A stretch of 24,000 bases of DNA from Acetobacterium carbinolicum. Its GTDB lineage: Bacteria > Bacillota > Clostridia > Eubacteriales > Eubacteriaceae. The stretch covers positions 2,617,105 through 2,641,104 of the forward strand of contig NZ_CP173357.1 of NCBI RefSeq assembly GCF_047456275.1. The letters are read 5' to 3'. The notes under the pieces are model-generated. The model worked only from the letters and a program-made list of their open reading frames with translations. It did no database searches and was not told where the DNA came from. Made by a program: the position numbers and the translations under genes. Positions 20 to 23,039 of this stretch are shown in pieces (positions within the stretch are counted from its first letter, which is position 1; every line of letters starts with the position of its first letter).

Positions 20-829
20 ATGAATAAACCATTATCCCCAGTTCTTGCTGAAAAACTGGCGACCCTGAAAGAGAATCTTTCCCGCTTCCCCAAGGTCAGC
101 ATTGCCTTTTCTGGCGGTGTAGACAGCACGCTATTGCTACAGGTAGCGGTTGACGTACTGGGGAACGCTGTTTTACCCATCACAGTCAATGGTGCTATGC
201 TACCCAGTTCCGAATTTACCGAGTCCCAGGCTTTGGCAAAGACCATCGGAGCGGTGCCGCTGGTGATTGAAGCAGATGTTTTTTCGCTGGAAAATTTTGT
301 CAAAAATCCGGCTGACCGCTGTTACCATTGCAAGAAATTTATTTTTACCCAAATCAAAGATGCCGCCCAGGCTAGAGGCTTTGAAGTCCTCCTGGACGGC
401 TCTAATTGGGACGATATGAAGGATTACCGGCCGGGCATTAAAGCCCTGGGAGAACTGGGTGTCTTTAGCCCTTTAAAAGAATCCGGCCTGACCAAACAGG
501 ATATCCGGGATCTGTCAACCTATTACAATCTCCCTACCGCCACCAAACCGGCTATGGCTTGCCTGGCCACCCGAATCCCCACTAATACACCGATCACGCC
601 GGAAGCCCTTGCGGCCATTGAAGCTGGGGAAGATTTTCTCAAATCCCTCGGTTTAAGCCAATATCGGCTGCGGCTTTTGGGTGATACAGCAAAAATTGAA
701 TGCGATCCCGACGATTTTGCTGCCATCATCAAAAACCGTCTGTCCCTAATCGACACCCTAAAAAAACTGGGCCTCAAAACCATCACCCTGGATCTGGCCG
801 GCTACAACTGCGGTAATATGAACGGTTGA
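20..829 (+). CDS. larE: LarE-type PP-loop ATP-dependent sulfur transferase (ATP pyrophosphatase superfamily)
   Basis: 269-aa ORF with an aaggag RBS (8-13) 6 nt before ATG 20. It has a PP-loop SGGVDS near the N-terminus, a DRCYHCK motif, and a Cys in AMACLATR at the position of the LarE sacrificial cysteine. Confidence 0.7.
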   Translation: MNKPLSPVLAEKLATLKENLSRFPKVSIAFSGGVDSTLLLQVAVDVLGNAVLPITVNGAMLPSSEFTESQALAKTIGAVPLVIEADVFSLENFVKNPADRCYHCKKFIFTQIKDAAQARGFEVLLDGSNWDDMKDYRPGIKALGELGVFSPLKESGLTKQDIRDLSTYYNLPTATKPAMACLATRIPTNTPITPEALAAIEAGEDFLKSLGLSQYRLRLLGDTAKIECDPDDFAAIIKNRLSLIDTLKKLGLKTITLDLAGYNCGNMNG

Positions 830-4411: not shown

Positions 4412-4440
4412 TTGCACTTTCATTTTTTAGTGTGTATAAT
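4412..4440 (+). promoter_or_regulatory. Sigma-A-type promoter of the riboswitch/bza operon
   Basis: TTGCAC (4412-4417), a 17-nt spacer, then TATAAT (4435-4440). It lies about 27 nt upstream of the riboswitch aptamer. Confidence 0.6.
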
Positions 4441-4466
4441 CAAAAGCAAGTAAATAGAAAAGCGAA

Positions 4467-4622
4467 CATATGGTGCCTTAACAATAAGGAGAATAGGGAA
4501 TCAGGTGAGAGTCCTGAACGAACCCATCACTGTAAGGGCGGAGCAAACCACAAAAACCACTGTTTTTTTAATGGGAAGGTGTGGCAAAGCGTTAAAACCC
4601 CAAGTCAGGAGACCTGCCTATG
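4467..4622 (+). promoter_or_regulatory. Cobalamin (B12) riboswitch aptamer
   Basis: B12 box AGTCAGGAGACCTGCC at 4603-4618. The upstream core is AATAGGGAATCAGGTGAGAGTCCTGAACGAACCCATCACTGTAAGG, followed by CCACTG...GGGAAGG. A P1-like pairing joins catatgg (4467-4473) to cctatg (4617-4622). The six-frame ORF 4432..4623 lies over this RNA. Confidence 0.85.
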
Positions 4623-4650
4623 AATCGATCCTGAATGAACGAAGGTAAAG

Positions 4651-4698
4651 TTCATGGCTGTTATTTAGAATAAATAACAGCTGTGGACTTTTTTATTT
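4651..4698 (+). terminator. Riboswitch expression-platform intrinsic terminator
   Basis: The perfect stem core is gctgttattta (4657-4667) / taaataacagc (4671-4681) with loop gaa. It extends with G-U pairs to 4651/4687 and is followed by c-TTTTTT-a-TTT (4689-4698). A competing small hairpin forms at 4635-4640/4650-4655. Confidence 0.7.
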
Positions 4699-4733
4699 GC
4701 CAAAATTCGTTGAGAATCATGCAGGAGGAAACG

Positions 4734-6035
4734 ATGACAATTCTTAAAAAAGCACAAGCCGGTGAGATCACCGCAGAAATGATTTATGTGGCACAAAAAG
4801 AAGGGCTCGATCCCGAGAACATTCGCCAGGGGGTAGCCGCCGGTGAAATCGTCATTCTAAAGAGTTCCCGGCCAAATATCAACCCGGTGGCGGTGGGCAA
4901 GGGTCTGTTTACCAAGGTTTCCGCCAGCGTTGGAATGTATGAAATAGATGATACCATCGCCGGTGAAATGGCTAAAATCGATCAGGCCGTAAAAGCCGAA
5001 GCGGATACGCTGATGGACTTAAGTGTTCGGGGTCCGATTGATGAAATGCGAGAAAAAGTCTTATCCACGGTGGACCGGCCGGTCGGTACCCTACCGCTTT
5101 ATCAAACCCTGGCTATGGCCCAGCAAAAATATGGCAGTGCTTTAGATATGACAGCTGATGATATGTTTGCGATGATGGAAAAGCATGCTTCCGAAGGCGT
5201 CAGCTTTTTAGCCCTGCACTGCGGCACCACCATGGACGTGATCAACCGCGCCAAAGAAGAAGGCCGGATTGATCCACTGGTTAGTTATGGGGGTTCCCAT
5301 CTGATTGGCTGGATGGTTCACAACCACTGTGAAAATCCCTTTTTTACCCAATATGACCGGGTCCTGGAAATCTGTAAAAAGTATGATGTCGTGCTGAGCT
5401 TTGCCGACGGCATGCGCCCCGGCTGTATTGCCGATTCCCTGGACGGCGCCCAGGTTCATGAATTGGTGATCCTCGGCGGTCTGGTTAAAAAGGCCCGGGC
5501 GGCCGGGGTTCAAGTGATGGTCAAAGGGCCGGGCCATGTGCCCCTGGATCAGATCCAGACCACTGTAAAGTTACAAAAACAACTATGCGGCGGCGCACCT
5601 TACTTTGTCTTTGGCTGTCTGCCCACCGACTCCGGGGCTGGTATGGACCACGTCACCGGTGCCATCGGCGGCGCGATCGCCGCCTATTACGGTGCCGACT
5701 TTCTCTGTTACGTGACCCCGGCCGAACATATCGGCATGCCTAATGCCGATGATGTGTATCTGGGCGTGATGGCCAGCCGCATTGCCGCCCATGCTGGTGA
5801 TGTTGGCAAAGGCCATCCGGCCGCGATTGCCTGGGATCTGGAAATGTCCCATGCCCGCCGGGAACTTAATTGGGGCCGGCAGATGGAACTGGCTATCGAT
5901 ACCGAAACCGCCACGAAGGTCTGGAAGGATCGTAGCACCAACTTCGAATCCGAGTGTAGCATGTGCGGCGACTTCTGTGCCATGAAAATTGTCGGTAAGT
6001 ATTTACGAGACGAAAACCAGGAAGCGAGGAACTAA
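4734..6035 (+). CDS. bzaA: ThiC-paralog radical-SAM enzyme, BzaA-type (5-hydroxybenzimidazole synthase component)
   Basis: I moved the start to ATG 4734, which has an aggagg RBS at 4723-4728; the track start at 4683 sits inside the terminator. ThiC-family blocks are present: LHCG, DGMRPG, KGPGHVP, TPAEH. The C-terminal Cys motif is CSMCGDFC (CX2CX3C, 5955-5978). Context is a B12 riboswitch, not a TPP riboswitch, with cobT downstream. Confidence 0.85.
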   Translation: MTILKKAQAGEITAEMIYVAQKEGLDPENIRQGVAAGEIVILKSSRPNINPVAVGKGLFTKVSASVGMYEIDDTIAGEMAKIDQAVKAEADTLMDLSVRGPIDEMREKVLSTVDRPVGTLPLYQTLAMAQQKYGSALDMTADDMFAMMEKHASEGVSFLALHCGTTMDVINRAKEEGRIDPLVSYGGSHLIGWMVHNHCENPFFTQYDRVLEICKKYDVVLSFADGMRPGCIADSLDGAQVHELVILGGLVKKARAAGVQVMVKGPGHVPLDQIQTTVKLQKQLCGGAPYFVFGCLPTDSGAGMDHVTGAIGGAIAAYYGADFLCYVTPAEHIGMPNADDVYLGVMASRIAAHAGDVGKGHPAAIAWDLEMSHARRELNWGRQMELAIDTETATKVWKDRSTNFESECSMCGDFCAMKIVGKYLRDENQEARN

Positions 6036-6037
6036 TT

Positions 6038-7321
6038 ATGACCCAAATGTTAAAAGCCCGTCAGGGTAAAATTACCGAAGAAATGGAAATGGTGGCACTC
6101 AGCGAAGGCTTCACACCTGAATTTATCAGAGCCGGAGTAGCTGCCGGCCGGATTGTCATTCCTAAAAATAAACTACGCAACCGTTCTAAGATCTGCGGCA
6201 TTGGTGGCGGCCTGGACGTCAAAGTCAATGGCCTGATGGGCACCTCCGGTGATCGGGATGATATGGACATGGAAGTCAAAAAACTAAAAATCATCGAAGC
6301 CGCCGGTGCCCACGGTTTTATGGATTTAAGTATGGGTGCCGATATTGATACCATGCGAACCTTAAGTCTAAATAATTCCAACATTGCCGCTGGCTGTGTG
6401 CCCGTTTATCAGGCTGCCAAAGAGGCGGCTGATAAACGGGGCCTGATGGTCAATATGACCTCTGATGATCTGTTTGAAGTGGTCGAAAAACAATGTCAGG
6501 CCGGTATGGATTTTATGGCGGTGCACTCGGCCTTGAATATGGATCTTCTCAAAATATTGAAAAAAACCGGTCGCGTTGCCGATATCTGTAGCCGTGGCGG
6601 ATCCTTGCTAACTGGCTGGATGTTCCATAACGATAAAGAAAATCCTCTTTATGCCGAATTTGACCGACTGCTGGAGATTCTCAAAGCGACCGATACGGTA
6701 CTTAGCATCGGCGACGCCATTCGACCCGGTGCCAATGCTGATTCTCTGGATCAGGCCCACCTGCGCGGCTTAATGGTCGCTGGTGAGCTGACCAAGCGGG
6801 CCCTGGCGGCCGGGGTTCAGGTGATGGTGGAAGGTCCCGGCCATGTGCCACTAAACCATATTCCCTCAGCGATGCTACTGCAAAAACGACTCTGTTACGA
6901 TGTACCCTACTATATTTTAGGCTTCCTGGCCACCGATATTGCTCCCGGATATGACAATATTACGGGTTCGATCGGCGGTGCCTTTGCCGGCATGCACGGG
7001 GCTGATTTCCTTTGTTACCTGACCCCAGCCGAACACCTGGGTCTGCCCAATGAGGAAGATGTCCGCATCGGTGTCGAAACGACCCGGATCGCCGCTAATG
7101 CGGCCAATGTCTTAAAGCGCGGCGGCGCGGCCTGGAACCGCGATCTGGCGATGTCCCGGGCCCGGGTTTCCCGCAATCAGGAAGAACAGATCAAAAACGC
7201 CATCAATCAGGCCAATCTGATCGCTGCCTTTGCGGCTCAAAAGCCTTCCCATGGTTGTGCCGTCTGTGCCGACAGTAAATGTCCGGCCGATGTCGCAGCG
7301 GAGTTTTTTGGGATATCCTAA
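6038..7321 (+). CDS. bzaB: ThiC-paralog radical-SAM enzyme, BzaB-type (second 5-hydroxybenzimidazole synthase component)
   Basis: 427-aa ORF that starts 2 nt after the bzaA stop, with a gagga RBS. ThiC-family blocks are present: CSRGGS, DAIRPG, EGPGHVP, LATDIAPGYDNITG, TPAEH. The C-terminal motif is CAVCADSKC (CX2CX4C, 7256-7282). By eye it is roughly 40 percent identical to the upstream paralog (not computed). Confidence 0.85.
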   Translation: MTQMLKARQGKITEEMEMVALSEGFTPEFIRAGVAAGRIVIPKNKLRNRSKICGIGGGLDVKVNGLMGTSGDRDDMDMEVKKLKIIEAAGAHGFMDLSMGADIDTMRTLSLNNSNIAAGCVPVYQAAKEAADKRGLMVNMTSDDLFEVVEKQCQAGMDFMAVHSALNMDLLKILKKTGRVADICSRGGSLLTGWMFHNDKENPLYAEFDRLLEILKATDTVLSIGDAIRPGANADSLDQAHLRGLMVAGELTKRALAAGVQVMVEGPGHVPLNHIPSAMLLQKRLCYDVPYYILGFLATDIAPGYDNITGSIGGAFAGMHGADFLCYLTPAEHLGLPNEEDVRIGVETTRIAANAANVLKRGGAAWNRDLAMSRARVSRNQEEQIKNAINQANLIAAFAAQKPSHGCAVCADSKCPADVAAEFFGIS

Positions 7322-7429
7322 ACCAGTAAACCCTTTGTGACGGGTAGCTTACCCGCCCCACGAAAAAAACAAGCGTTTATTATCCAAAAGCGTCATCCAT
7401 CATCCCATAGGGGCTTGTAATACAAGCCC

Positions 7430-7459
7430 TTACAAACCTCACTAATACAGTGATAAAAT
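7430..7459 (+). promoter_or_regulatory. Candidate internal promoter upstream of cobT
   Basis: TTACAA (7430-7435), an 18-nt spacer, then TGaTAAAAT (TG 7451-7452, hexamer 7454-7459), inside the 182-nt bzaB-cobT spacer. This is sequence resemblance only. Confidence 0.3.
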
Positions 7460-7503
7460 CAATCATATGTTTCATTTATTGCCAAGTAGAAAGGATAATT
7501 ACC

Positions 7504-8592
7504 ATGATCGAAACCAAATATACCTTAACACACGTCATCGACCATACCGAACCGGCTGACCCCAAGTGGCGTCAGGCTGCCCGCGATCATATTGAAAAAT
7601 TAGCGATTCCGCCCTGGAGTCTCGGTCAGCTGCTGGTTGTTGCTGAACAGTTGGCCGGGATTCAACGCACCATCCGACCCAATGTCGATAAAAAAATGGT
7701 CATCACCATGGCCGGAGATCACGGCGTGGTGGCCGAAGGGGTTTCTGCCTTCCCTCAGGAGGTGACCCCACAGATGGTGGAAAACTTTGTCAAAGGCGGA
7801 GCGGGCATTAATATTTTAGCCAAAGCCGCTGGCGCCGAAGTGATTGTCGTTGATATGGGCGTCGCTGTGGATATGCCCGAACTGGTTTCACAAGGCGCCA
7901 TCATTGACTGCAAGATCGCCCATGGCACCAAAAACTTTTATCAGGAACCGGCAATGACCCGGGAACAAGCCATTGCTGCGCTGGAAGCCGGGATCAATGT
8001 GGCTTCCAAGGTGATCAAAGAACAGGGGATCAATCTGCTGGCTACCGGCGATATGGGGATTGGCAACACGACCCCCAGCGCCGCTATTTTAGCGGTGATG
8101 GCCGAATATCCGGTTTCATCAGTAACCGGCCGGGGCACCGGCATTGATAACGCCACCTTGCTCAACAAGATCAAAGTGATCCGGGAATCGATCAATCGCC
8201 ATCAACCCGATAAAACCGATCCCATTGATGTCCTTTCCAAAGTCGGGGGCTTCGAGATTGCCGGGATTGCCGGCGTAATCCTGGGGGCTGCTTTTAATCA
8301 GGTGCCGGTTCTGGTGGACGGCTTTATTTCCACCGCTGGTGCGCTGATCGCCAAGGCCCTTTGTCCCCAATCGCTGGATTATATGATTCCCTCCCATCAG
8401 AGTGAAGAACCGGGGCATCAGCTAATGTGGCAAGCCCTGGGCTTACGCCCCCTGCTTAACCTCAATTTCAGATTAGGGGAAGGCACCGGGGCAGCGGTGG
8501 CGATGCACCTGGTGGAATCCTCGGCCCGGGTCATCTGCGACGTCTTAACCTTTACTGACGCAGGAGTAACCAATGGTCATGAATGGGTATGA
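7504..8592 (+). CDS. cobT: Nicotinate-nucleotide--dimethylbenzimidazole phosphoribosyltransferase
   Basis: I moved the start to ATG 7504 (gaaagga RBS); the track start at 7450 adds an implausible hydrophobic extension. CobT hallmarks are present: PPWSLGQL near the N-terminus, MAGDHGV, DMGIGNTT and LGEGTGA. Confidence 0.9.
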   Translation: MIETKYTLTHVIDHTEPADPKWRQAARDHIEKLAIPPWSLGQLLVVAEQLAGIQRTIRPNVDKKMVITMAGDHGVVAEGVSAFPQEVTPQMVENFVKGGAGINILAKAAGAEVIVVDMGVAVDMPELVSQGAIIDCKIAHGTKNFYQEPAMTREQAIAALEAGINVASKVIKEQGINLLATGDMGIGNTTPSAAILAVMAEYPVSSVTGRGTGIDNATLLNKIKVIRESINRHQPDKTDPIDVLSKVGGFEIAGIAGVILGAAFNQVPVLVDGFISTAGALIAKALCPQSLDYMIPSHQSEEPGHQLMWQALGLRPLLNLNFRLGEGTGAAVAMHLVESSARVICDVLTFTDAGVTNGHEWV

Positions 8593-9625
8593 TCCCCAAA
8601 CCAACGGCGGCCAGTATTTAGAAGACCTGGCCACCGCCTACTGGGTTTCCGATGCGCTGTTCACCGCTTTGGAAATGGATCTTTTTCAAACCATCGATGA
8701 TTTCGGGATCCGCGGTGCCAGTCTCTTAGAACTCGCCCCAAAACTGGGTGCCAACGAAAGCGCCCTGGAACGTTACCTGGCACTTCTAAACAGTCTTGGT
8801 CTAGTAGGATGCTACCAAAATGTTTATTATAACCAATTGATTACCAAAGAATATTTACTAATAGCGAGTCCGCTTTATCAGGGCGACTCGCTGCTGTGGC
8901 GTAAAAATCTTACTGATGACTGGAATACGCTTAAAGCTTCGCTGACTGCTGGTGGTCGGGTCAACTTTCTGCCGGCGGATATCAGCGAAGATGAACTTAA
9001 CCTGCGCCGGGCTAAATACATCAAAGCCATGGACAACGTGGCCAAGTTAAAAGCCCGCGACTGCACCACCTTTTTTACCGAACTCAGCGGTGATATTCTG
9101 GATGTGGGAACCGGCTCCGGAGCTATGGCACTGGCCTTTTTAGAAGCCTTTCCGGGCACTCGTGCCACCCTGCTCGACATTGTGCAGATGCTTCCTCAAA
9201 CTCAAAAACTTGTCGATGCCACCGCCTACGCAGATCGGGTTAACTACCACCCCGCTAATATTCTGGAACCACAATGGGGTCTTGCCAAAAAATATCGGTT
9301 GATCATTCTTTCTAATATTATTCACGCCTACGCCGAGTCGGAAAACGAACAGGTTTTAAAAACCGCAGCCAGCCATTTGAGTGATGATGGCATCATCCTG
9401 ATCCATGATTTTTTTAATGAGCATGACCCGGTCAAGGCTCACCTGACCGATATCAATATGTTTTTAAACACCTACAATGGCAAAGTTTTTTCCGGAGCCT
9501 GGGTAATTGCCGAGCTTAAAAAAAATGATCTACTCACCTCATCGCTGATTCCTCTGGCCACCGACACCGCCCTGATCTTTGCCGCCCGAAGCCAGATGGC
9601 ACTGGATACCATTTATTTCAAATAA
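8573..9625 (+). CDS. bzaC: Class-I SAM-dependent (O-)methyltransferase, BzaC-type
   Basis: 350-aa ORF with an aggag RBS (8562-8566) 6 nt before ATG 8573. It overlaps the cobT 3' end by 20 nt. It has an N-terminal helical dimerisation-type domain and the SAM motif I LDVGTGSGAMAL. Confidence 0.8.
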   Translation: MVMNGYDPQTNGGQYLEDLATAYWVSDALFTALEMDLFQTIDDFGIRGASLLELAPKLGANESALERYLALLNSLGLVGCYQNVYYNQLITKEYLLIASPLYQGDSLLWRKNLTDDWNTLKASLTAGGRVNFLPADISEDELNLRRAKYIKAMDNVAKLKARDCTTFFTELSGDILDVGTGSGAMALAFLEAFPGTRATLLDIVQMLPQTQKLVDATAYADRVNYHPANILEPQWGLAKKYRLIILSNIIHAYAESENEQVLKTAASHLSDDGIILIHDFFNEHDPVKAHLTDINMFLNTYNGKVFSGAWVIAELKKNDLLTSSLIPLATDTALIFAARSQMALDTIYFK

Positions 9626-9656
9626 TTATTATCGTTAACCAAATCAAGGAGAAACC

Positions 9657-10985
9657 ATGAAAATACTTTTCATCCAAGCCCTCTCAATGGAGGGTATCGA
9701 CATCGAGCGGGTTTATCCCATTGGGATCGTCGTGCTGGCATCTCAGGTCGAGCGGCAAACCAATCATGATCTGCAGCTTTTTGACATGAATATGGCCATC
9801 GATCCCTATGGCGATTTACGCTTACAACTGGATACCTATCAGCCGGACGTGGTCTGTCTGTCGCTACGAAATATTGATCCTTTGGGTAATAAAACCTCGT
9901 CGTTGATTCCCGGCTTTGCCGTTACCCTGGCTTTTATTAAACGCTACGCGGCTGATACCAAAATCTTAGTCGGTGGAACCGGTTTTTCGCTATTCCCGGA
10001 ACGGCTGATGCGCGAATATCCGGAAATTGACTTCGGCGTGACCGGCGAGGCCGAAAAAATCATTGTGCCACTACTGGAAAATCTCAATAACCCGCCCCAC
10101 CTCCCAGGGCTCTGCTACCGCGAAAACAAAGCGGTCTTGATCGTCCCACCGGTGGGTGATTATGATATGCTGGATTACGTGATGCCCAACCGCGATCTGC
10201 TTGATCCCCGCCCCTACCTCACCGTTAATAAATATGTGGAAAGTATTGGCGTGGAAACCAAACGGGGCTGCTGTTTTAGCTGCGGCTACTGTTCCTATCC
10301 GCTCCTGCAGGGCTCTAAAATGCGTTGCCGCACCCCTGAAGCGGTGGTCGATGAAATCCAGTTTCTCTACGAAACATACGGTGTCACCCGGATCCACTTC
10401 ACCGATTCGGTGGTCAATATTCCGGTGGATCACCTCGATACAATCTGCGCTGAAATCATCCGGCGAGGTTTAAAAATTAACTGGAGCGGTTTTTTTCGCG
10501 AAAACCTGTTAACCGAAGAAAACGTCGCCCTCTATACCCAATCCGGCTGCGAATGCTTTTCCCTGTCCCCCGACGGCCTGAGCCAAACGGCCCTGGATGC
10601 CATGGATAAGCATATGCGTGTCCAGGATATCCTCAACACTGCTCAGGTGTTGGCAGGCAGCGGTGTGGTCACAGTTTATCACTTCCTCGTCAATACCCCC
10701 GGGGATACCGCCGCAACCCAGCAGCAAGCCAGGGACCTCATCGATGCGATTTACGAGATCCATCACGCTTCCAAAACCCTGGGTACCATTGTACTCAATA
10801 ATATCCGTATTTTACCGGGCACCAAGGTAGAACAACAGGCTCTGGCAAACGGGGTGATCACCCCGGAAACCGATCTGCTCTACCCCACCTACTATAACCC
10901 GGCGCCCTTTGACCGGGTCCGCTATGATCTGGAAATCTATCATACCAAAAAAAATATCTTTATGTGGCAGGAGGTCACCTCATGA
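9657..10985 (+). CDS. bzaD: B12-binding-domain radical-SAM enzyme (class-B methyltransferase-like), BzaD-type
   Basis: 442-aa ORF with an aaggag RBS. It has an N-terminal Rossmann-like B12-binding-type domain and the radical-SAM triad CX3CX2C in GCCFSCGYC (nt 10269-10292). Confidence 0.8.
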   Translation: MKILFIQALSMEGIDIERVYPIGIVVLASQVERQTNHDLQLFDMNMAIDPYGDLRLQLDTYQPDVVCLSLRNIDPLGNKTSSLIPGFAVTLAFIKRYAADTKILVGGTGFSLFPERLMREYPEIDFGVTGEAEKIIVPLLENLNNPPHLPGLCYRENKAVLIVPPVGDYDMLDYVMPNRDLLDPRPYLTVNKYVESIGVETKRGCCFSCGYCSYPLLQGSKMRCRTPEAVVDEIQFLYETYGVTRIHFTDSVVNIPVDHLDTICAEIIRRGLKINWSGFFRENLLTEENVALYTQSGCECFSLSPDGLSQTALDAMDKHMRVQDILNTAQVLAGSGVVTVYHFLVNTPGDTAATQQQARDLIDAIYEIHHASKTLGTIVLNNIRILPGTKVEQQALANGVITPETDLLYPTYYNPAPFDRVRYDLEIYHTKKNIFMWQEVTS

Positions 10986-12466
10986 ATGTCATTCTTTTAG
11001 AACATCCCCGCTCCTACGGCGACGACCGCTGTAACGATATTGCCAACGCCCCCCTTTCAGCCTGCTTGAACACCGGCTATATTGGCGGCATGCTGGCCGC
11101 CAACAACATTGATGTGACAATTGTGGACGGCTATCTGGAACAGCTGGATTATCCGGCCATTGAAGAGCAAATAGCAACGCTAACGCCCACGATTTTAGGG
11201 ATTCACCTGGTTTATCACTGGGAGGACAACAAAACCCTTTATCAGTTTATTAAGCACATCAAACAAACCTATGGCATTGCTTATGTCTGCGTTTATGGTT
11301 TTTACCCCACCTTTGCCTATGAAGAAATTCTTAACCGCTGTCCGGCCATTGACTCAGCCCTGTTAGGCGAAGCTGAACTGACTTTCTTGACGCTGGCCGA
11401 AAATTTCCCCACCGTTCCCCAGTCGGGAATCGCCACACGCACCACTAATGGCATTGTCGCGACCCGAGGCGAGGTTGTTACGGATGTGGATTCATTGCCC
11501 TTTCCTCTGCGCAGCACCAGCTCCTATTCTTTTGGCGAGGTCAATATTTCCGGTAGCCGGGGCTGTTACGGTGGCTGTACTTTTTGTTATATCAACCCCT
11601 ACTACGGCGATACAAAACGGAAATGGCGGGGCCGAAGTCCGGAGAACATTATCACCGAAATCGATACAATAATGAAGCAAACCGATATCCGCTACTTTTA
11701 TTTTATGGACCCCAACTTCTACGGTCCCGGTCGCGCTGGAAAAGAGCGGGTCCTAAAACTGGCCCATCTTTTAAAAGAACGCCACATCCACTTTGGCATT
11801 GAAGCGCGGGCCAACGATATCGAAGAAGAAACCATCAAAGCCCTGACTGACGCCGGTCTTAAACACATTTTAATCGGTCTGGAAAGCGGCCTTGATGAAG
11901 CGCTGAAACGGCTTAATAAGCTGACCACCGTGGCTGATAATGAACAGGCTCTGGAAATCCTCCGGAAATACGGCATCGAACCCAGCGTCGGTTTTATTAT
12001 GTTTGAACCGGACTCGACCCTGAAAGATCTGAAAGTCAACTACGATTTTTTAAAACGAAACGCTCTACTGGATAAGCTGGAAATCAGCGTTAATGTACTC
12101 TATCATCATATGATTATTCTTAAGGGTAGCTCCTCCTACAAAGCCCTCCAGGATCAGGGGCGGCTAAATATTTCCCCTCACTCCACCTATGAGGCAGATA
12201 CTGATTATCTTAACCCAAGGGTGGCGATGTTAGCCGGGATGATGAGAGACATGACTAATCATATTTTTTCCTATATGAAAGATACCTGGGAACTGAGCTT
12301 TAAGAAAGATCCGGTAATTCTGGAAAAATATCGTCTGATCAATCAGCTGCTGATTCAATCCTTTGAAGATTATCTTTACTTACTAAAAAACAGAGAAATC
12401 ACTATTGATCAACGAAACAGTTTTGTGGATACCTTTAATCATACCGTTGATGGAATTATGGCATAA
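10982..12466 (+). CDS. bzaE: B12-binding-domain radical-SAM enzyme (class-B methyltransferase-like), BzaE-type
   Basis: I placed the start at ATG 10982, which forms an ATGA overlap with the bzaD stop (10983-10985). The radical-SAM triad is CYGGCTFC (nt 11564-11587). It has the same two-domain layout as bzaD. Confidence 0.8.
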   Translation: MNVILLEHPRSYGDDRCNDIANAPLSACLNTGYIGGMLAANNIDVTIVDGYLEQLDYPAIEEQIATLTPTILGIHLVYHWEDNKTLYQFIKHIKQTYGIAYVCVYGFYPTFAYEEILNRCPAIDSALLGEAELTFLTLAENFPTVPQSGIATRTTNGIVATRGEVVTDVDSLPFPLRSTSSYSFGEVNISGSRGCYGGCTFCYINPYYGDTKRKWRGRSPENIITEIDTIMKQTDIRYFYFMDPNFYGPGRAGKERVLKLAHLLKERHIHFGIEARANDIEEETIKALTDAGLKHILIGLESGLDEALKRLNKLTTVADNEQALEILRKYGIEPSVGFIMFEPDSTLKDLKVNYDFLKRNALLDKLEISVNVLYHHMIILKGSSSYKALQDQGRLNISPHSTYEADTDYLNPRVAMLAGMMRDMTNHIFSYMKDTWELSFKKDPVILEKYRLINQLLIQSFEDYLYLLKNREITIDQRNSFVDTFNHTVDGIMA

Positions 12467-12503
12467 AAAACGCCTAAAGGGAAATCCCTTTAGGCATTTT
12501 TTT
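12465..12503. terminator. Bidirectional intrinsic terminator between convergent bzaE and the CNNM gene
   Basis: Perfect 10-bp stem gcctaaaggg (12472-12481) / ccctttaggc (12486-12495). An A-run lies upstream (12465-12470) and a T-run downstream (12497-12503). Confidence 0.8.
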
Positions 12504-12511
12504 ATCTGATT

Positions 12512-13762
12512 TTATTCAGACTCAATTATTTCATTTCTAACAACATTTATCTCAATCACGTGACGTTCGTCCGACTTGGTAATGGTGAAGGTCAGATTTT
12601 CAAACTCAAAGGATTCACCCACATTGGGAACGCGATCCAGAAATTCAACAATCCAACCACCTACCGTGATCACGTCAAAATCATCATCCATATCAAAAAG
12701 ATCAAACATTTTTCCCAGATTTGCTTTTCCTAAAATCCGATATTCGTCTTTGGATATTTTTACAAATTCATCGATGACCTCATCATGTTCGTCCCAGATT
12801 TCACCAACCAGTTCTTCAATGACATCTTCAAGGGTGACAATACCAGCGGTTCCGCCATATTCGTCGGAAACGACAGCAATATGGCATTTTTTCTGCTGGA
12901 GCAGCGTTAGCAACTTGGAAATTTTCATATTTGGAGTGATAAAGACCACCGGGCTGATGATTTCTTCCAGACTGCTGTTGCCATTGGCCACATAATGGGT
13001 AAAATCCTTATAACTGATAAAACCGATAATCTGATCAATGGTCCCCTGATAAACTGGCAGCCGGGAAAAACCAGTTTCAAAAAACAACTTGGTAATATCC
13101 TCCTTGGGATTATCCACATCAATAGCGACCACATCCACCCGATGGGTCAGGATATCATCCACATCCAGGTCATTGAACTCGATCGCACTGCGAATCAATT
13201 CTCCATCCTGAAGATCGATGCCACCATCATTTTCTGCTTCTTCCACAATGGTCAGCAGTTCTTCTTCGGTCATGCTGCGTTCATCATTAACCTTAAACAA
13301 TTTATCAAGCATTTTTTTCCATAACATAAATAAAAAGTTCACTGGTGTTAATATAAACATCAGAAACCGAATAAAAGGAGCCGCAAACATGGCAAAACTT
13401 TCAGGTGAATCTTTAGCCAGACTTTTAGGTGAAATTTCACCAAAAATAAGTACCAGTACGGTCATCACCGCCGTTGAAATGGTCACTCCGGCATTGCCGA
13501 AATAGCGAACAAAAACCACCGTAGCAATTGATGCTGAAGCAATGTTGACAATATTATTCCCGATCAGAATTGTCGATAATAAAACGTCAAATCGATCAGA
13601 AAGTGCCAAAACCTGAGCCGCTCTTTTGTTTCCGTCTTTGGCCAAATTTTTTATGCGAATACGATTAATGGAGGTAAAAGCCGTTTCCGTCGCCGAAAAA
13701 TATGCTGACATCAGCAGCATCACCACTAGAACTGCAATAAAACCTATAACACTACTGTCCAT
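12512..13762 (-). CDS. CNNM/DUF21-CBS-CorC_HlyC family membrane protein (hemolysin-family / putative Mg2+ or divalent-cation efflux)
   Basis: 416-aa ORF with an N-terminal DUF21 TM domain (SATETAF motif), a central CBS pair and a C-terminal CorC/HlyC transporter-associated domain. A gggagg RBS is present. Confidence 0.9.
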   Translation of the reverse strand: MDSSVIGFIAVLVVMLLMSAYFSATETAFTSINRIRIKNLAKDGNKRAAQVLALSDRFDVLLSTILIGNNIVNIASASIATVVFVRYFGNAGVTISTAVMTVLVLIFGEISPKSLAKDSPESFAMFAAPFIRFLMFILTPVNFLFMLWKKMLDKLFKVNDERSMTEEELLTIVEEAENDGGIDLQDGELIRSAIEFNDLDVDDILTHRVDVVAIDVDNPKEDITKLFFETGFSRLPVYQGTIDQIIGFISYKDFTHYVANGNSSLEEIISPVVFITPNMKISKLLTLLQQKKCHIAVVSDEYGGTAGIVTLEDVIEELVGEIWDEHDEVIDEFVKISKDEYRILGKANLGKMFDLFDMDDDFDVITVGGWIVEFLDRVPNVGESFEFENLTFTITKSDERHVIEINVVRNEIIESE

Positions 13763-20366: not shown

Positions 20367-21098
20367 CTATCGTACCCGCGGTTTTTGCATGCACAGGGGC
20401 AGCTCCAAATGACATTGAGATAAGAGGTTTTCGTCAAATAGGATATCTCGAACTGTGCCATCTGCAAACACGCTGCCATGATGTAAAATAATCACCCGGT
20501 CACAAATATCAAGGGCCATATCCAAATCATGGGTGGCAATAACTTTGGTCATTTTCAGGGTGTCGAGGGTATTAATTACATTTCGTCTGGCCTGGGGATC
20601 AAGAAATGAGGTCGGCTCATCAAACAAAATAACCCGGGGATTCATGGCTAACACCGAAGCAATGGCAATGACCCGCTTTTCACCACCGGATAAACGATGA
20701 GGCATCCGATCCCGCAGATGAATAATCCCCAACTGTTCCAAAACGTTGACCACCCGCTCTTCTACCACATGTTCATCGAGCAATTCATTTCGCGGACCAA
20801 AGGCAATGTCATCATAAACCTTTGTCATAAACAACTGATCATCCGGATTCTGAAAAACCATCCCGACTTTCCGGCGAATATCTTTCAGCGTTTTTTTCTC
20901 CACTGGCAAATCATCAACTATAATCGCTCCTTCTTTGATCTCAGAAATACCGATAATTAGCTTGAACAAACTGGATTTTCCCGCCCCGTTAGCTCCTACC
21001 AAGGCAATGCTCTCACCCTCTTCGATTTTTAGATTTACATCTCGAATAGCCTGATGGCCGTCGGGATAGGCATAATTCAACTTTTTTATTTCTAGCAT
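20367..21098 (-). CDS. cbiO: ECF/cobalt-nickel transporter ATP-binding protein
   Basis: 243-aa ORF. Walker A is GANGAGKSS, the signature is LSGGEKR and Walker B is VILFDEPTSFLD. It follows cbiQ with a 13-nt gap. Confidence 0.9.
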   Translation of the reverse strand: MLEIKKLNYAYPDGHQAIRDVNLKIEEGESIALVGANGAGKSSLFKLIIGISEIKEGAIIVDDLPVEKKTLKDIRRKVGMVFQNPDDQLFMTKVYDDIAFGPRNELLDEHVVEERVVNVLEQLGIIHLRDRMPHRLSGGEKRVIAIASVLAMNPRVILFDEPTSFLDPQARRNVINTLDTLKMTKVIATHDLDMALDICDRVIILHHGSVFADGTVRDILFDENLLSQCHLELPLCMQKPRVR

Positions 21099-21111
21099 TA
21101 AGAACTCCTCA

Positions 21112-21909
21112 TTATAAAAAACTGCCGATAAACAGGCTCAGATCAAAAAATCGCATCAAACACAAAACACCAGCTACAAAAACCAGATACAACCAATCAC
21201 CCTTATGAATCGGGCTTGGTTTAGCGTAAAGATAATTACCATCGTATCCACGACATTTCATGGCCACATAAATACTCTCAGCCCGATCAAAACTTTTTAA
21301 TAACAACTGCCCCACAAAGATACCCATGTCTTTCATTTTGATACCCTTGGAATCCGGTGCTCTTAAAATATAGGCTGTATACATATTTGAGACCTGCTCT
21401 AACAGCACCGAAATGTAACGATAAGTCAACATAATTTGTTCCACAATAATTTTGGGTACTTTAATCGATAATAATTGATAGGAAATTTTTGGCAATGAAG
21501 TTGTCGCAATCAGGATCAGCACCGCCATGACGGTAAATATCGTTTTAACCATAATAGACGTAAAGGAGATTAAACCATAACTGATCGGAACCGGTCCGAG
21601 CATCAATGCCAGTTGCTGATTAAAAATGATATTGGATAACCCCGCAAAAAAAGAAAAGGGCAAGGCGACCAATAGTCGCTTTAGCAAGGGTTTATAAGGT
21701 ATTTCAGCCAAGGCCATTAAAATCACCGGATAGAAAGCAAACACCACCAGTCCGGTAATATTAAAAGGGTTAAACGAAATAACCAGCACCAGATAAAGCA
21801 TCGTGGTAATCAGTTTGACCATTGGATGAAGACGATGGATGACGGTATTGCCATCGGCCATTTCCTCCAGAGAATTGATCGTATTCATTGAGTCGGTAAT
21901 TGTTGACAT
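21112..21909 (-). CDS. cbiQ: ECF transporter transmembrane (T) component
   Basis: 265-aa polytopic membrane ORF of CbiQ/EcfT type, with a C-terminal conserved region (SFDRAESIYVAMKCRGY). It is flanked by cbiM and cbiO. Confidence 0.85.
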   Translation of the reverse strand: MSTITDSMNTINSLEEMADGNTVIHRLHPMVKLITTMLYLVLVISFNPFNITGLVVFAFYPVILMALAEIPYKPLLKRLLVALPFSFFAGLSNIIFNQQLALMLGPVPISYGLISFTSIMVKTIFTVMAVLILIATTSLPKISYQLLSIKVPKIIVEQIMLTYRYISVLLEQVSNMYTAYILRAPDSKGIKMKDMGIFVGQLLLKSFDRAESIYVAMKCRGYDGNYLYAKPSPIHKGDWLYLVFVAGVLCLMRFFDLSLFIGSFL

Positions 21910-21934
21910 TGAGACTACCTTTCAGTTAAATATT

Positions 21935-21966
21935 AAATAACCTCTGTTTATAAACAGAGGTTATTT
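21935..21966 (-). terminator. Perfect 32-nt palindrome; terminator-like hairpin between cbiM and cbiQ
   Basis: aaataacctctgttta|taaacagaggttattt is exactly self-complementary. On the minus-strand RNA the core is CCUCUG/CAGAGG, the 3' arm is U-rich, and aaUaUUU follows. Confidence 0.45.
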
Positions 21967-22025
21967 AGAAAACTATTGTTAATGTTAACACATAAAGATT
22001 GCTATTTCAATTAGTAATAAATTGT

Positions 22026-23039
22026 CTAAGAAGCTTTTTCTTTTTTCCGTTTGATGGCATAAATCAGATAACCGGTGCCACCTGCCAGGATCAGCGTAAT
22101 ACCGGCCCCAACAATGCCAGAAACACTGGTTCCAGCAGCTGAACCGTCACCATCTGTTGATTTAAAACCATAATCGGGTAGGAAGGCGGTGCTTTCCTGA
22201 ATACTTCCAGCACTGCTGTAAATATCACCATCTGCTTCGAGTTCGGCGGTTCCGGCCACATTTTCCATGGCCCATTCCAGACCATCGGGATTTGCTGATG
22301 CAAAAAGTGATAAACCGCCTCCCACAACGACAGCAAAGATCAGTAGCGTTCCCATTACTTTCTTAATGGAAATATTTTTAGGCAATTTTGTATTTTCAAC
22401 CGATGATTCCAATAACTCCGGCCGCATTTTATATACAAAGACCAAAATTCCGCCGGTCACAATCCCTTCAACCAGACCAATGGCCAGGTGGATCGGAATC
22501 ATTAAACCAACAAAGGTCATAAATGGTAATTCGGTAATTCCCGATGCCAGCGTTTCAAGCACTACTGAAAAGGCGCCTAACGATAAAGCTAAAACGACCG
22601 AAACAATCGCTGCCACGGTAATCCGACTCGGTGTCAGTCCTCTTTTTACAATCGCTTTAAAGACAAAGGGGTAAACCAGCAAACAGGCATAAAAACCCAT
22701 ATTCCAGATATTTGCGCCTAAGGCCAAAAGCCCACCATCGGCAAAGAAGAGTGCCTGAATCAGCAATACCGCAGTAAGGGTTAAAAATGCGGGAAAGGGT
22801 CCCAATAGGGCTGCCAGTAAAATCCCGCCACCAATATGTCCACTGGAACCAGTCCCCGGAATAGTGAAATTAATCATCTGTCCGGCAAAGATCACGGCCC
22901 CCATAACACCCATTAATGGGATCTTTTTTTCATCTAAATCGTCTTTACATTTATACGCCGAATAGGCGATTGCTCCGGCGCTCGCCGCAAGCATGATTCC
23001 TCCAACTGCTGGAGAAACTAAAGCATCTGCCATGTGCAT
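22026..23039 (-). CDS. cbiM: CbiM/NikM-type ECF metal substrate component fused to a C-terminal PDGLE (CbiN-like) domain
   Basis: 337-aa ORF that starts with MH (MHMADALVSP), the metal-ligating N-terminus typical of CbiM/NikM. A conserved His lies in GSSGHIGGG near residue 68. The C-terminal extension contains ANPDGLEW followed by a final TM helix and a KRKKEK tail. There is no separate cbiN gene. Confidence 0.85.
   Translation of the reverse strand: MHMADALVSPAVGGIMLAASAGAIAYSAYKCKDDLDEKKIPLMGVMGAVIFAGQMINFTIPGTGSSGHIGGGILLAALLGPFPAFLTLTAVLLIQALFFADGGLLALGANIWNMGFYACLLVYPFVFKAIVKRGLTPSRITVAAIVSVVLALSLGAFSVVLETLASGITELPFMTFVGLMIPIHLAIGLVEGIVTGGILVFVYKMRPELLESSVENTKLPKNISIKKVMGTLLIFAVVVGGGLSLFASANPDGLEWAMENVAGTAELEADGDIYSSAGSIQESTAFLPDYGFKSTDGDGSAAGTSVSGIVGAGITLILAGGTGYLIYAIKRKKEKAS

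Follow-up and report, generated by a model that had tools for sequence, protein, structure and literature searches.

[quoted passage not shown] The identity of its elements, their orthology, their synteny and the selection acting on them were established in this analysis. The chemistry and the end product, expected to be DMB/cobalamin, are carried over from the literature. The locus comprises the following features.

4412..4440, + strand: putative sigma-70-type promoter, from sequence reading and conservation in relatives
4454..4635, + strand: cobalamin riboswitch aptamer, RF00174 match with the B12 box inside
4616..4658, + strand: candidate antiterminator, from the fold of the nascent transcript 4600-4668
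4647..4697, + strand: riboswitch intrinsic terminator, 20-bp stem followed by a T-tract
4734..6035, + strand: bzaA, ThiC-like radical SAM protein, 433 aa (PF01964, 581 bits; BzaA clade)
6038..7321, + strand: bzaB, second ThiC-like protein, 427 aa (TIGR04386, 713.2 bits; BzaB clade)
7322..7503, + strand: bzaB-cobT spacer, two GC-rich hairpins without T-tracts and the cobT ribosome-binding site
7504..8592, + strand: cobT, nicotinate-nucleotide:benzimidazole phosphoribosyltransferase, 362 aa (TIGR03160, PF02277)
8573..9625, + strand: bzaC, short form, 350 aa (PF08100 and PF00891, no DUF2284)
9657..10985, + strand: bzaD, B12-binding radical SAM protein, predicted C-methylase, 442 aa (TIGR04385, PF02310, PF04055)
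10982..12466, + strand: bzaE, B12-binding radical SAM protein, predicted last step to DMB, 494 aa (PF04055, PF02310)
12472..12503, no strand assigned: bidirectional intrinsic terminator, 10-bp stem with six G-C pairs

The six ORFs are co-directional and tightly packed, with intergenic gaps of 2, 182, -20, 31 and -4 nt, exactly as a sequence-only reading of this DNA had described them. Public gene calls in a near-identical A. carbinolicum genome gave the same protein lengths (433, 427, 362, 350, 442, and 494 aa). The domain matches comprised two ThiC_Rad_SAM proteins, one DBI_PRT protein (CobT), one O-methyltransferase and two proteins with B12-binding and radical SAM domains, in agreement with the products that the earlier reading had named. 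The dN/dS ratios of 0.03 to 0.15 over all six genes indicate purifying selection. The terminator at the operon end, at 12472-12495, is bidirectional, as had been proposed, because an A-run precedes its stem and a T-run follows it; it also serves the convergent CNNM/CorC-family gene at 12512-13762. The window was 98.9% identical to A. carbinolicum CP173187.2. The six-gene order was common to about 40 loci, including those of Eubacterium callanderi (L019) and an E. limosum MAG (L022), and per-protein identities to the E. limosum/callanderi operon were 54 to 77%, which bears out the claim that the gene order is that of E. limosum. No BluB homolog was found within the window.

The putative promoter is read as TTGCAC (4412-4417) and TATAAT (4435-4440) with a 17-nt spacer between them, and a T-rich tract lies just 5' of it. 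Both hexamers were kept across 11 Acetobacterium loci, in which the DNA further 5' is divergent, and this conservation upholds the promoter that had been placed there from the sequence. The consensus promoter scan did not list 4412..4440, because the -35 hexamer fits the consensus at only three of six bases. An Rfam search of the whole window returned nothing besides one RF00174 match at 4454-4635 (+), with 111 bits (E = 2e-27; gathering score, 31.5 bits) over model positions 1-189, the full length. The leader thus scores as a cobalamin riboswitch. Its B12 box, AGTCAGGAGACCTGCC, lies at 4603-4618, and both this box and the strong leader terminator had been recognized correctly. RF00174 elements were also present 5' of bzaA in six comparison loci (L004, L008, L012, L019, L029, and L046; 98-116 bits), and the leader terminator, whose 20-bp stem and T-tract were placed at 4647-4691, showed compensatory stem changes in L011 and L012. 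In the predicted fold of 4600-4668, nucleotides 4616-4625, from the 3' strand of helix P1 of the aptamer, pair with nucleotides 4650-4658 in the 5' arm of the terminator; both segments were kept in relatives, and in the Rfam alignment 4616-4628 form the closing strand of P1. Folding and conservation together suggest a terminator/antiterminator architecture, which may act as a switch under control of AdoCbl. With AdoCbl bound to the aptamer, P1 would keep nucleotides 4616-4628, the terminator at 4647-4697 would fold and transcription would be halted. When the ligand is absent, 4616-4625 would pair with 4650-4658 and block the terminator, and the operon would be transcribed.

The cobT gene is preceded by the 182-nt spacer, whose hairpins are read at about 7331-7348 and 7411-7429. 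The spacer was 27 to 219 nt long among Acetobacterium loci, its recurring parts were the first hairpin and the ribosome-binding site only, and the Rfam search of 7322..7503 gave no match. CobT scored 449 on TIGR03160 (cutoff, 319) and 459 bits on PF02277, and its start at 7504 agrees with the public gene call and with the N-terminal sequence conserved in L002. Gene 5 scored 752.5 on the BzaD model TIGR04385 (cutoff, 450). BzaE is distinct from BzaD, on whose model it reached just 38 bits, and NCBIfam has no specific model for it; it was 64-65% identical to, and syntenic with, BzaE of the E. limosum MAG and E. callanderi. A KB-1 protein that is sequence identical to A. carbinolicum BzaE is named "5-methoxy-6-methylbenzimidazole methyltransferase". 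The CX3CX2C triads that had been pointed out in these two proteins were confirmed in BzaD of related loci and in the BzaE consensus. BzaD and BzaE are predicted enzymes whose activities have never been reconstituted, and the BzaE step has been called "enigmatic" (review PMC12931638), so that the description of three methyltransferases is a label.

In the tree of ThiC-like proteins, gene 1 grouped with the genes that come first in bza operons (BzaA clade) and gene 2 with those that come second (BzaB clade), each with a bootstrap of 100. The two clades joined with a bootstrap of 94, separate from a single-gene Nitrospirae clade and from canonical ThiC, which was represented by E. coli, Arabidopsis and Caulobacter. 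Gene 2 passed the BzaB model TIGR04386 by a narrow margin (713.2 versus a cutoff of 700), and its A. carbinolicum ortholog is named BzaB in RefSeq. Gene 1 has an AGGAGG ribosome-binding site at 4723-4728. It passed the ThiC equivalog PRK13352 (567 bits versus a cutoff of 410) and also TIGR00190, and it is called ThiC in RefSeq; on these grounds it could be a genuine ThiC (HMP-P synthase) that serves thiamine synthesis and adjoins B12 genes by chance. However, NCBIfam holds no competing BzaA model, so that the PRK13352 pass is not discriminating, and the RefSeq name follows from the same two facts. The position of gene 1 in the BzaA clade, far off canonical ThiC, also argues against a genuine ThiC, as do its control by a cobalamin riboswitch instead of a TPP riboswitch and the lack of thi genes nearby. 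A bza operon has been defined by adjacent ThiC-like bzaA and bzaB genes at most 2000 nt apart (Shelton et al. 2018), and here they lie 2 nt apart. Close homologs from A. dehalogenans and A. bakii scored 640 and 653 bits, respectively, on the published BzaA HMM, whose cutoff is 554 bits (Shelton et al. 2018). A thiamine role for gene 1 is thus highly improbable, and the evidence supports gene 1 as BzaA, one half of a predicted 5-hydroxybenzimidazole synthase. [quoted passage not shown]

By analogy with the literature, BzaA and BzaB together would rearrange AIR to 5-hydroxybenzimidazole, CobT would add a phosphoribosyl group to this base, BzaC would O-methylate the resulting ribotide, and BzaD and BzaE are predicted to act as the C-methylase and in the final step to DMB, respectively. 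The earlier view of successive methylations leading to DMB stands as far as the pathway is concerned, but probably not as regards free bases. BzaC prefers the CobT-activated 5-hydroxybenzimidazole-ribotide, according to a later report (review PMC12931638), and the methylations therefore probably do not take place on free bases. The operon might instead yield another benzimidazole, such as 5-methoxy-6-methylbenzimidazole or 5-methoxybenzimidazole, and a cobamide other than cobalamin. In favor of this are the unreconstituted activities of BzaD and BzaE, together with Clostridium formicaceticum, for which a 5-methoxy-6-methylbenzimidazolyl cobamide was reported (Stupperich 1988, as cited in Shelton et al. 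2018) and which has a BzaE homolog (P0073, 56% identity); gene content is thus not fully predictive of the product. Against it, none of the six genes is disrupted and all are under constraint, and both E. limosum and A. woodii carry a bza operon and make cobalamin (PMC8123684; Shelton et al. 2018, Table S6). In addition, the bzaABCDE operon is complete in Acetobacterium sp. KB-1, and in cultures that contain KB-1 its growth goes along with an approximately 20-fold rise in cobalamin (bioRxiv 10.1101/612242); the KB-1 BzaD and BzaE proteins are sequence identical to those of A. carbinolicum CP173187.2. A product other than DMB is therefore quite unlikely.

The only unusual trait of the operon is its BzaC, which is without the cysteine-rich end domain DUF2284 of most relatives. 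BzaC consists of an O-methyltransferase dimerisation domain (PF08100) and a class I SAM methyltransferase domain (PF00891), and DUF2284 (PF10050) was absent from this protein and from the entire window. The protein was 99% identical to A. carbinolicum WP_423055433 and 54% identical to the methyltransferase part of BzaC from E. callanderi and the E. limosum MAG. A KB-1 protein from its 90% cluster carries the submitter name "5-hydroxybenzimidazole O-methyltransferase". DUF2284-bearing BzaC was seen in E. callanderi, Desulfosporosinus and long-form Acetobacterium, and among the other fetched bza loci whose sequence includes the 3' end of bzaC, only two were without the domain. The published BzaC HMM has 279 positions and covers the methyltransferase domain (Shelton et al. 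2018); because it leaves DUF2284 out, the domain is typical of BzaC but does not define it.

This wide retention of DUF2284 is one reason to ask whether the bza operon is real but its short BzaC is an inactive remnant, with O-methylation carried out by a full-length paralog (methyltransferase plus DUF2284) elsewhere in the genome. Short, low-scoring BzaC-like proteins have been deemed degraded and were described as confined to genomes that also encode a full-length BzaC (Shelton et al. 2018). A. dehalogenans, listed with "bzaACCDE", has a 350-aa BzaC and a 520-aa paralog elsewhere in its genome, so that the active copy may not be the short one. On the published HMM, however, the short copy scored higher than the paralog (334 versus 269 bits), and a 348-aa BzaC of Dethiobacter reached 343 bits (Shelton et al. 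2018). Several observations on the short gene itself also speak against a remnant. An intact bzaC of about 350 aa was found not only in the window but also in seven loci of the Acetobacterium lineage (L001, L004, L005, L007, L008, L009, and L023), with a similar short form in L020 and L021. Its dN/dS was 0.10-0.15, it stops at the domain boundary, and it retains every invariant column shared with BzaC of E. callanderi, A. bakii and Desulfosporosinus. The 20-nt overlap of bzaC with cobT is consistent with translational coupling. An inactive BzaC is therefore unlikely, and on its sequence features the DUF2284-less BzaC is probably functional. We lean, with only slightly better than even confidence, towards the fuller proposal that the 350-aa BzaC has full activity as a minimal 5-hydroxybenzimidazole(-ribotide) O-methyltransferase and arose by clean domain loss at least two times, in the A. 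carbinolicum/malicum/wieringae/woodii lineage and in the Eubacteriaceae ES2/ES3 lineage; similar short forms occur elsewhere. On this proposal, DUF2284 would be dispensable for DMB synthesis or would act in trans, and the lineages with a short BzaC would offer a natural experiment on its role. Purifying selection on the short form argues against calling every short BzaC degraded in genome-based cobamide prediction.

The bza pathway is the route by which strict anaerobes make the base whose presence defines a cobamide as true vitamin B12, and Acetobacterium strains with the operon are thought to feed DMB/cobalamin to Dehalococcoides in bioremediation consortia (bioRxiv 10.1101/612242). The window contributes no new biology on this pathway. 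Because the same operon was reported for A. woodii and Acetobacterium sp. KB-1, the finding was already known, and the sequence-only reading was right to treat it as a published pathway. Its expectation that automatic annotation would miss the pathway was correct for gene 1 ("phosphomethylpyrimidine synthase ThiC"), gene 4 ("class I SAM-dependent methyltransferase") and gene 6 ("radical SAM protein"), but RefSeq names genes 2 and 5 BzaB and BzaD. With BzaA named ThiC and BzaC and BzaE named generically, automated metabolic reconstructions would call thiamine synthesis too often and DMB synthesis too rarely.

Finally, the operon was compared with known systems. BluB, the aerobic DMB synthase, shares the end product DMB but is an unrelated O2-dependent flavin destructase, unlike the bza pathway. 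ThiC (HMP-P synthase; PDB 3EPM and 4S25) resembles the window pair in its PF01964 fold family, in its use of AIR as substrate and in its C-terminal Cys motif, whereas it belongs to another clade, has long forms of known structure, makes another product and is typically regulated by a TPP riboswitch. BzaF, which serves as the sole 5-hydroxybenzimidazole synthase in Geobacter and Desulfuromonas, likewise belongs to the ThiC superfamily and uses AIR, but it is one gene, and the window proteins are a pair in separate BzaA and BzaB clades. The Moorella thermoacetica operon bzaA-bzaB-cobT-bzaC, for 5-methoxybenzimidazolyl cobamide, shares the BzaA/BzaB pair, CobT and BzaC; as described, it has no bzaD or bzaE. 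Its BzaC, the biochemically characterised one (PMC8123684), is a 515-aa protein counted among the DUF2284-bearing BzaCs and, like them, annotated "metal-binding protein". In the E. limosum/callanderi operon (2015, PNAS, as cited), the six genes and their order are as in the window and a cobalamin riboswitch precedes them (L019); the proteins of that operon were 77, 75, 72, 54, 69, and 65% identical to those of the window, in gene order. E. limosum BzaC has 518 aa with a C-terminal DUF2284, in contrast to the 350 aa without it here. The operons of Acetobacterium sp. KB-1, A. woodii and A. dehalogenans (bioRxiv 10.1101/612242; Shelton et al. 2018) are essentially the same locus, with no substantive difference; they have the 350-aa short BzaC in common with the window, which represents another strain of the same species group.

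Six co-directional genes, a leader and two terminators make up the bza operon, and the features are as follows.

4412-4440, + strand: putative promoter upstream of the aptamer (TTGCAC, 17-nt spacer, TATAAT)
4454-4635, + strand: cobalamin riboswitch aptamer (Rfam, full-length, 111 bits versus a gathering score of 31.5)
4603-4618, + strand: B12 box, AGTCAGGAGACCTGCC, from sequence reading
4647-4697, + strand: leader terminator hairpin 3' of the aptamer, with a 20-bp stem and T-tract
4734-6035, + strand: gene 1, bzaA
6038-7321, + strand: gene 2, bzaB
7322-7503, + strand: bzaB-cobT spacer of 182 nt, with two GC-rich hairpins without T-tracts
7504-8592, + strand: gene 3, cobT
8573-9625, + strand: gene 4, bzaC
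9657-10985, + strand: gene 5, bzaD
10982-12466, + strand: gene 6, bzaE
12472-12495, both strands: bidirectional terminator hairpin at the end of the operon, with an A-run on its 5' side and a T-run on its 3' side

The gaps between the six ORFs are 2, 182, -20, 31, and -4 nt, and the public gene calls of a near-identical genome have identical ORF lengths. The array first recognized in the sequence-only reading is present throughout at the positions given there. The Pfam search identified two ThiC_Rad_SAM proteins, one DBI_PRT protein (CobT), one O-methyltransferase with a dimerisation domain, and two proteins with B12-binding and radical SAM domains. Under NCBIfam, gene 2 passed the curated BzaB model (713 versus a cutoff of 700), gene 3 passed the CobT model (449 versus 319), and gene 5 was far over the BzaD cutoff (752 versus 450). 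Gene 6 had no specific curated model in NCBIfam; its product is 64 to 65% identical to that of the syntenic last operon gene of an E. limosum MAG and E. callanderi. Gene 1 passed the ThiC equivalog, a result that does not discriminate because NCBIfam has no BzaA model, and a ThiC-superfamily tree was therefore built.

The tree comprised 118 sequences and was computed by neighbour joining on corrected p-distances, not by maximum likelihood. From 18 bza loci it took the ThiC-like genes in first and second position; to these were added five single-gene Nitrospirae loci, representatives of 50% identity clusters drawn from a library of 1.8 billion proteins, and the ThiC proteins of E. coli, Arabidopsis, and Caulobacter. 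Structures of BzaA, BzaB, and BzaF were not found in the PDB; because it holds long-form ThiC only, the short-form relatives were drawn unlabelled from the 50% representatives. Gene 1 grouped in one clade with all the first genes and gene 2 in another with all the second genes (bootstrap 100 each), and these two clades were joined (bootstrap 94) apart from canonical ThiC and the single-gene clade. The models for BzaB, CobT, and BzaD, the position of both ThiC-like proteins outside canonical ThiC, and the synteny of BzaE with the E. limosum MAG support the gene identities originally proposed. That reading had also guessed that automatic annotation would give ThiC or generic names and miss the pathway. 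This held for BzaA ("phosphomethylpyrimidine synthase ThiC"), BzaC ("class I SAM-dependent methyltransferase"), and BzaE ("radical SAM protein"), whereas RefSeq properly names BzaB, CobT, and BzaD.

The cobalamin riboswitch was the sole family found by the Rfam scan of the 24-kb window, and it was detected upstream of bzaA in 6/6 loci tested. The leader scored as a full-length aptamer, and the B12 box, promoter, and terminator previously noted were all located. The promoter was skipped by a simple consensus scan because its -35 hexamer agrees with the consensus at just three of six bases; both hexamers were kept in an alignment of 11 Acetobacterium loci, with divergent DNA farther upstream. 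Compensatory changes in the leader terminator stem were observed in two relatives. Rfam places positions 4616-4628 in the 3' strand of the aptamer's P1 helix, and in the predicted fold of the nascent transcript 4616-4625 pairs with 4650-4658, the 5' arm of the terminator. Both pairing segments are conserved in relatives. Because the 3' strand of P1 would otherwise pair with the terminator arm, a ligand-stabilised P1 should free the terminator and would switch the operon off. In two of the loci fetched from other genomes (L008 and L023), the leader terminator is separated from the ribosome-binding site of bzaA by an additional ~170 nt that the window and most relatives lack.

The length of the bzaB-cobT spacer lies between 27 and 219 nt in the Acetobacterium loci, where its recurring parts are the first hairpin and the cobT ribosome-binding site only. 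A second regulatory RNA in this spacer was rejected on the basis of its variable length, its absence in A. bakii, and the lack of an Rfam match; the spacer may act in mRNA processing or stability, setting the amount of BzaAB relative to that of the downstream enzymes. The bidirectional terminator expected at the operon end was present and is common to the operon and a gene converging on bzaE, which encodes a CNNM/CBS/CorC-family membrane protein of the Mg/Co-efflux type (12512-13762, - strand). This arrangement is probably coincidental. The flanking genes in the window are unrelated (an ABC exporter, SPFH/NfeD proteins, the CNNM-family protein, a CdaR-type regulator, glycerate kinase, a hydrolase, and TelA). 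The start of the window (20-829, + strand) encodes LarE, a sulfur transferase that belongs to nickel-pincer cofactor synthesis, and the genes for an ECF transporter of the CbiM/NikM type are located ~8 kb downstream of bzaE (20367-23039, - strand). The transporter consists of a CbiM-PDGLE fusion, CbiQ, and an ABC ATPase, all under the curated CbiM cutoffs, and its substrate could be either cobalt or nickel. A riboswitch upstream of it was rejected, as there was no credible match at E <= 1.

The BzaC of the window has ~350 aa and ends at the domain boundary. Seven loci of the Acetobacterium lineage (L001, L004, L005, L007, L008, L009, and L023) share this short form, among them those of A. malicum, A. 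wieringae, and a MAG labelled A. woodii. In all but two other fetched loci covering the bzaC 3' end, the protein has 510 to 525 aa and carries, after the same methyltransferase, a C-terminal cysteine-rich DUF2284 domain (PF10050, 90 to 110 bits); the Eubacteriaceae ES2 lineage (L020 and L021) has a comparable short form of ~335 to 345 aa. DUF2284 sequence was not found anywhere in the window or in the 21-kb short-BzaC loci, and separate encoding of the domain within the window was rejected, since tblastn at E <= 10 returned noise only.

A less likely reading is that the short BzaC is an inactive remnant, with O-methylation carried out by a full-length paralog elsewhere. Shelton et al. judged short, low-scoring BzaC-like proteins to be degraded, yet their table gives 334 bits for the 350-aa BzaC of A. 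dehalogenans versus 269 bits for a 520-aa paralog (Shelton 2018). The short BzaC retains every residue invariant across the long and short forms, its dN/dS is 0.10 to 0.15, its gene overlaps cobT by 20 nt, and ~20 of its 120 top-ranking database homologs likewise combine short length with the lack of PF10050. Because of these features, the short BzaC is most likely functional, and we put the probability that it works on its own slightly above even, at roughly 0.55. When the window was compared with two closely related long-form loci (L002 and L006), bzaC had a synonymous divergence of 0.84 and 1.10, exceeding the 0.39 to 0.67 of the neighbouring genes. This hints at short and long alleles that predate the operon around them, as a result of recombination or allele replacement.

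A BzaE alignment used to scan the GTDB species genomes yielded 80 loci, including Acetobacterium, Eubacterium, Pseudoramibacter, Anaerovirgula, and Desulfoscipio. About 40 loci have the six genes in the order seen here. Among Acetobacterium relatives, all six genes showed dN/dS values of 0.03 to 0.15, indicating purifying selection, and the window is 98.9% identical to Acetobacterium carbinolicum CP173187.2 across 19.6 kb.

Several loci differ from this six-gene arrangement. In Neomoorella stamsii (L074, 5832-11428), bzaA, bzaB, and a bzaC with DUF2284 are directly followed by a BzaE-like gene; bzaD is absent and no cobT match lies between. The Shelton table also lists a BzaE match in Moorella thermoacetica, for which the pathway is described as ending with 5-methoxybenzimidazole (Shelton 2018). 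Six Desulfosporosinus loci (L045, L046, L048, L053, L060, and L063) lack cobT between bzaB and bzaC, and in L046 a 166-aa ORF in its place (6636-7136) appears PurE-like on sequence reading; if it is PurE, it would act on AIR, the substrate of the bza pathway. Eight loci from Nitrospirae and Thermodesulfovibrionales MAGs (L044, L049, L069, L071, L076, and L078 to L080) have another order, in which bzaC-bzaD-bzaE come first, a single ThiC-like gene follows, and cobT is last. This ThiC-like gene is 44 to 46% identical to BzaA, forms a separate clade, and is presumably BzaF-like. Clostridium formicaceticum has a BzaE homolog (P0073, 56% identity) and is reported to make 5-methoxy-6-methylbenzimidazolyl cobamide (literature cited in Shelton Table S6); thus, the presence of bzaE may be no guarantee of DMB as the product.

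Reviews of the literature assign the step from AIR to 5-hydroxybenzimidazole to BzaA and BzaB, and the activation of this base to CobT. BzaC O-methylates the CobT-activated base with a reported preference for the ribotide, and BzaD and BzaE are predicted to be radical SAM enzymes that depend on B12, with the step of BzaE described as still "enigmatic" (PMC12931638). Exactly this operon is reported in the cobalamin producers E. limosum and A. woodii (PMC8123684; Shelton 2018 Table S6), and A. dehalogenans and A. bakii were scored for bza genes (Shelton 2018). The bzaABCDE operon is complete in Acetobacterium sp. KB-1, and in a dechlorinating culture without added vitamins the growth of KB-1 tracks an increase in cobalamin of ~20-fold (bioRxiv 10.1101/612242). 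In database records, KB-1 and A. carbinolicum have BzaD and BzaE proteins of identical sequence, and BzaC, BzaD, and BzaE had already been named as the three benzimidazole methyltransferases by the GenBank submitter. The locus was thus rightly taken for a published pathway with nothing undescribed: because of the operons reported in E. limosum, A. woodii, and KB-1 and the submitter's names, the finding is correct but already known in this very species group, and its sole remaining value lies in the DUF2284-less BzaC and the persistent ThiC misannotation of BzaA.
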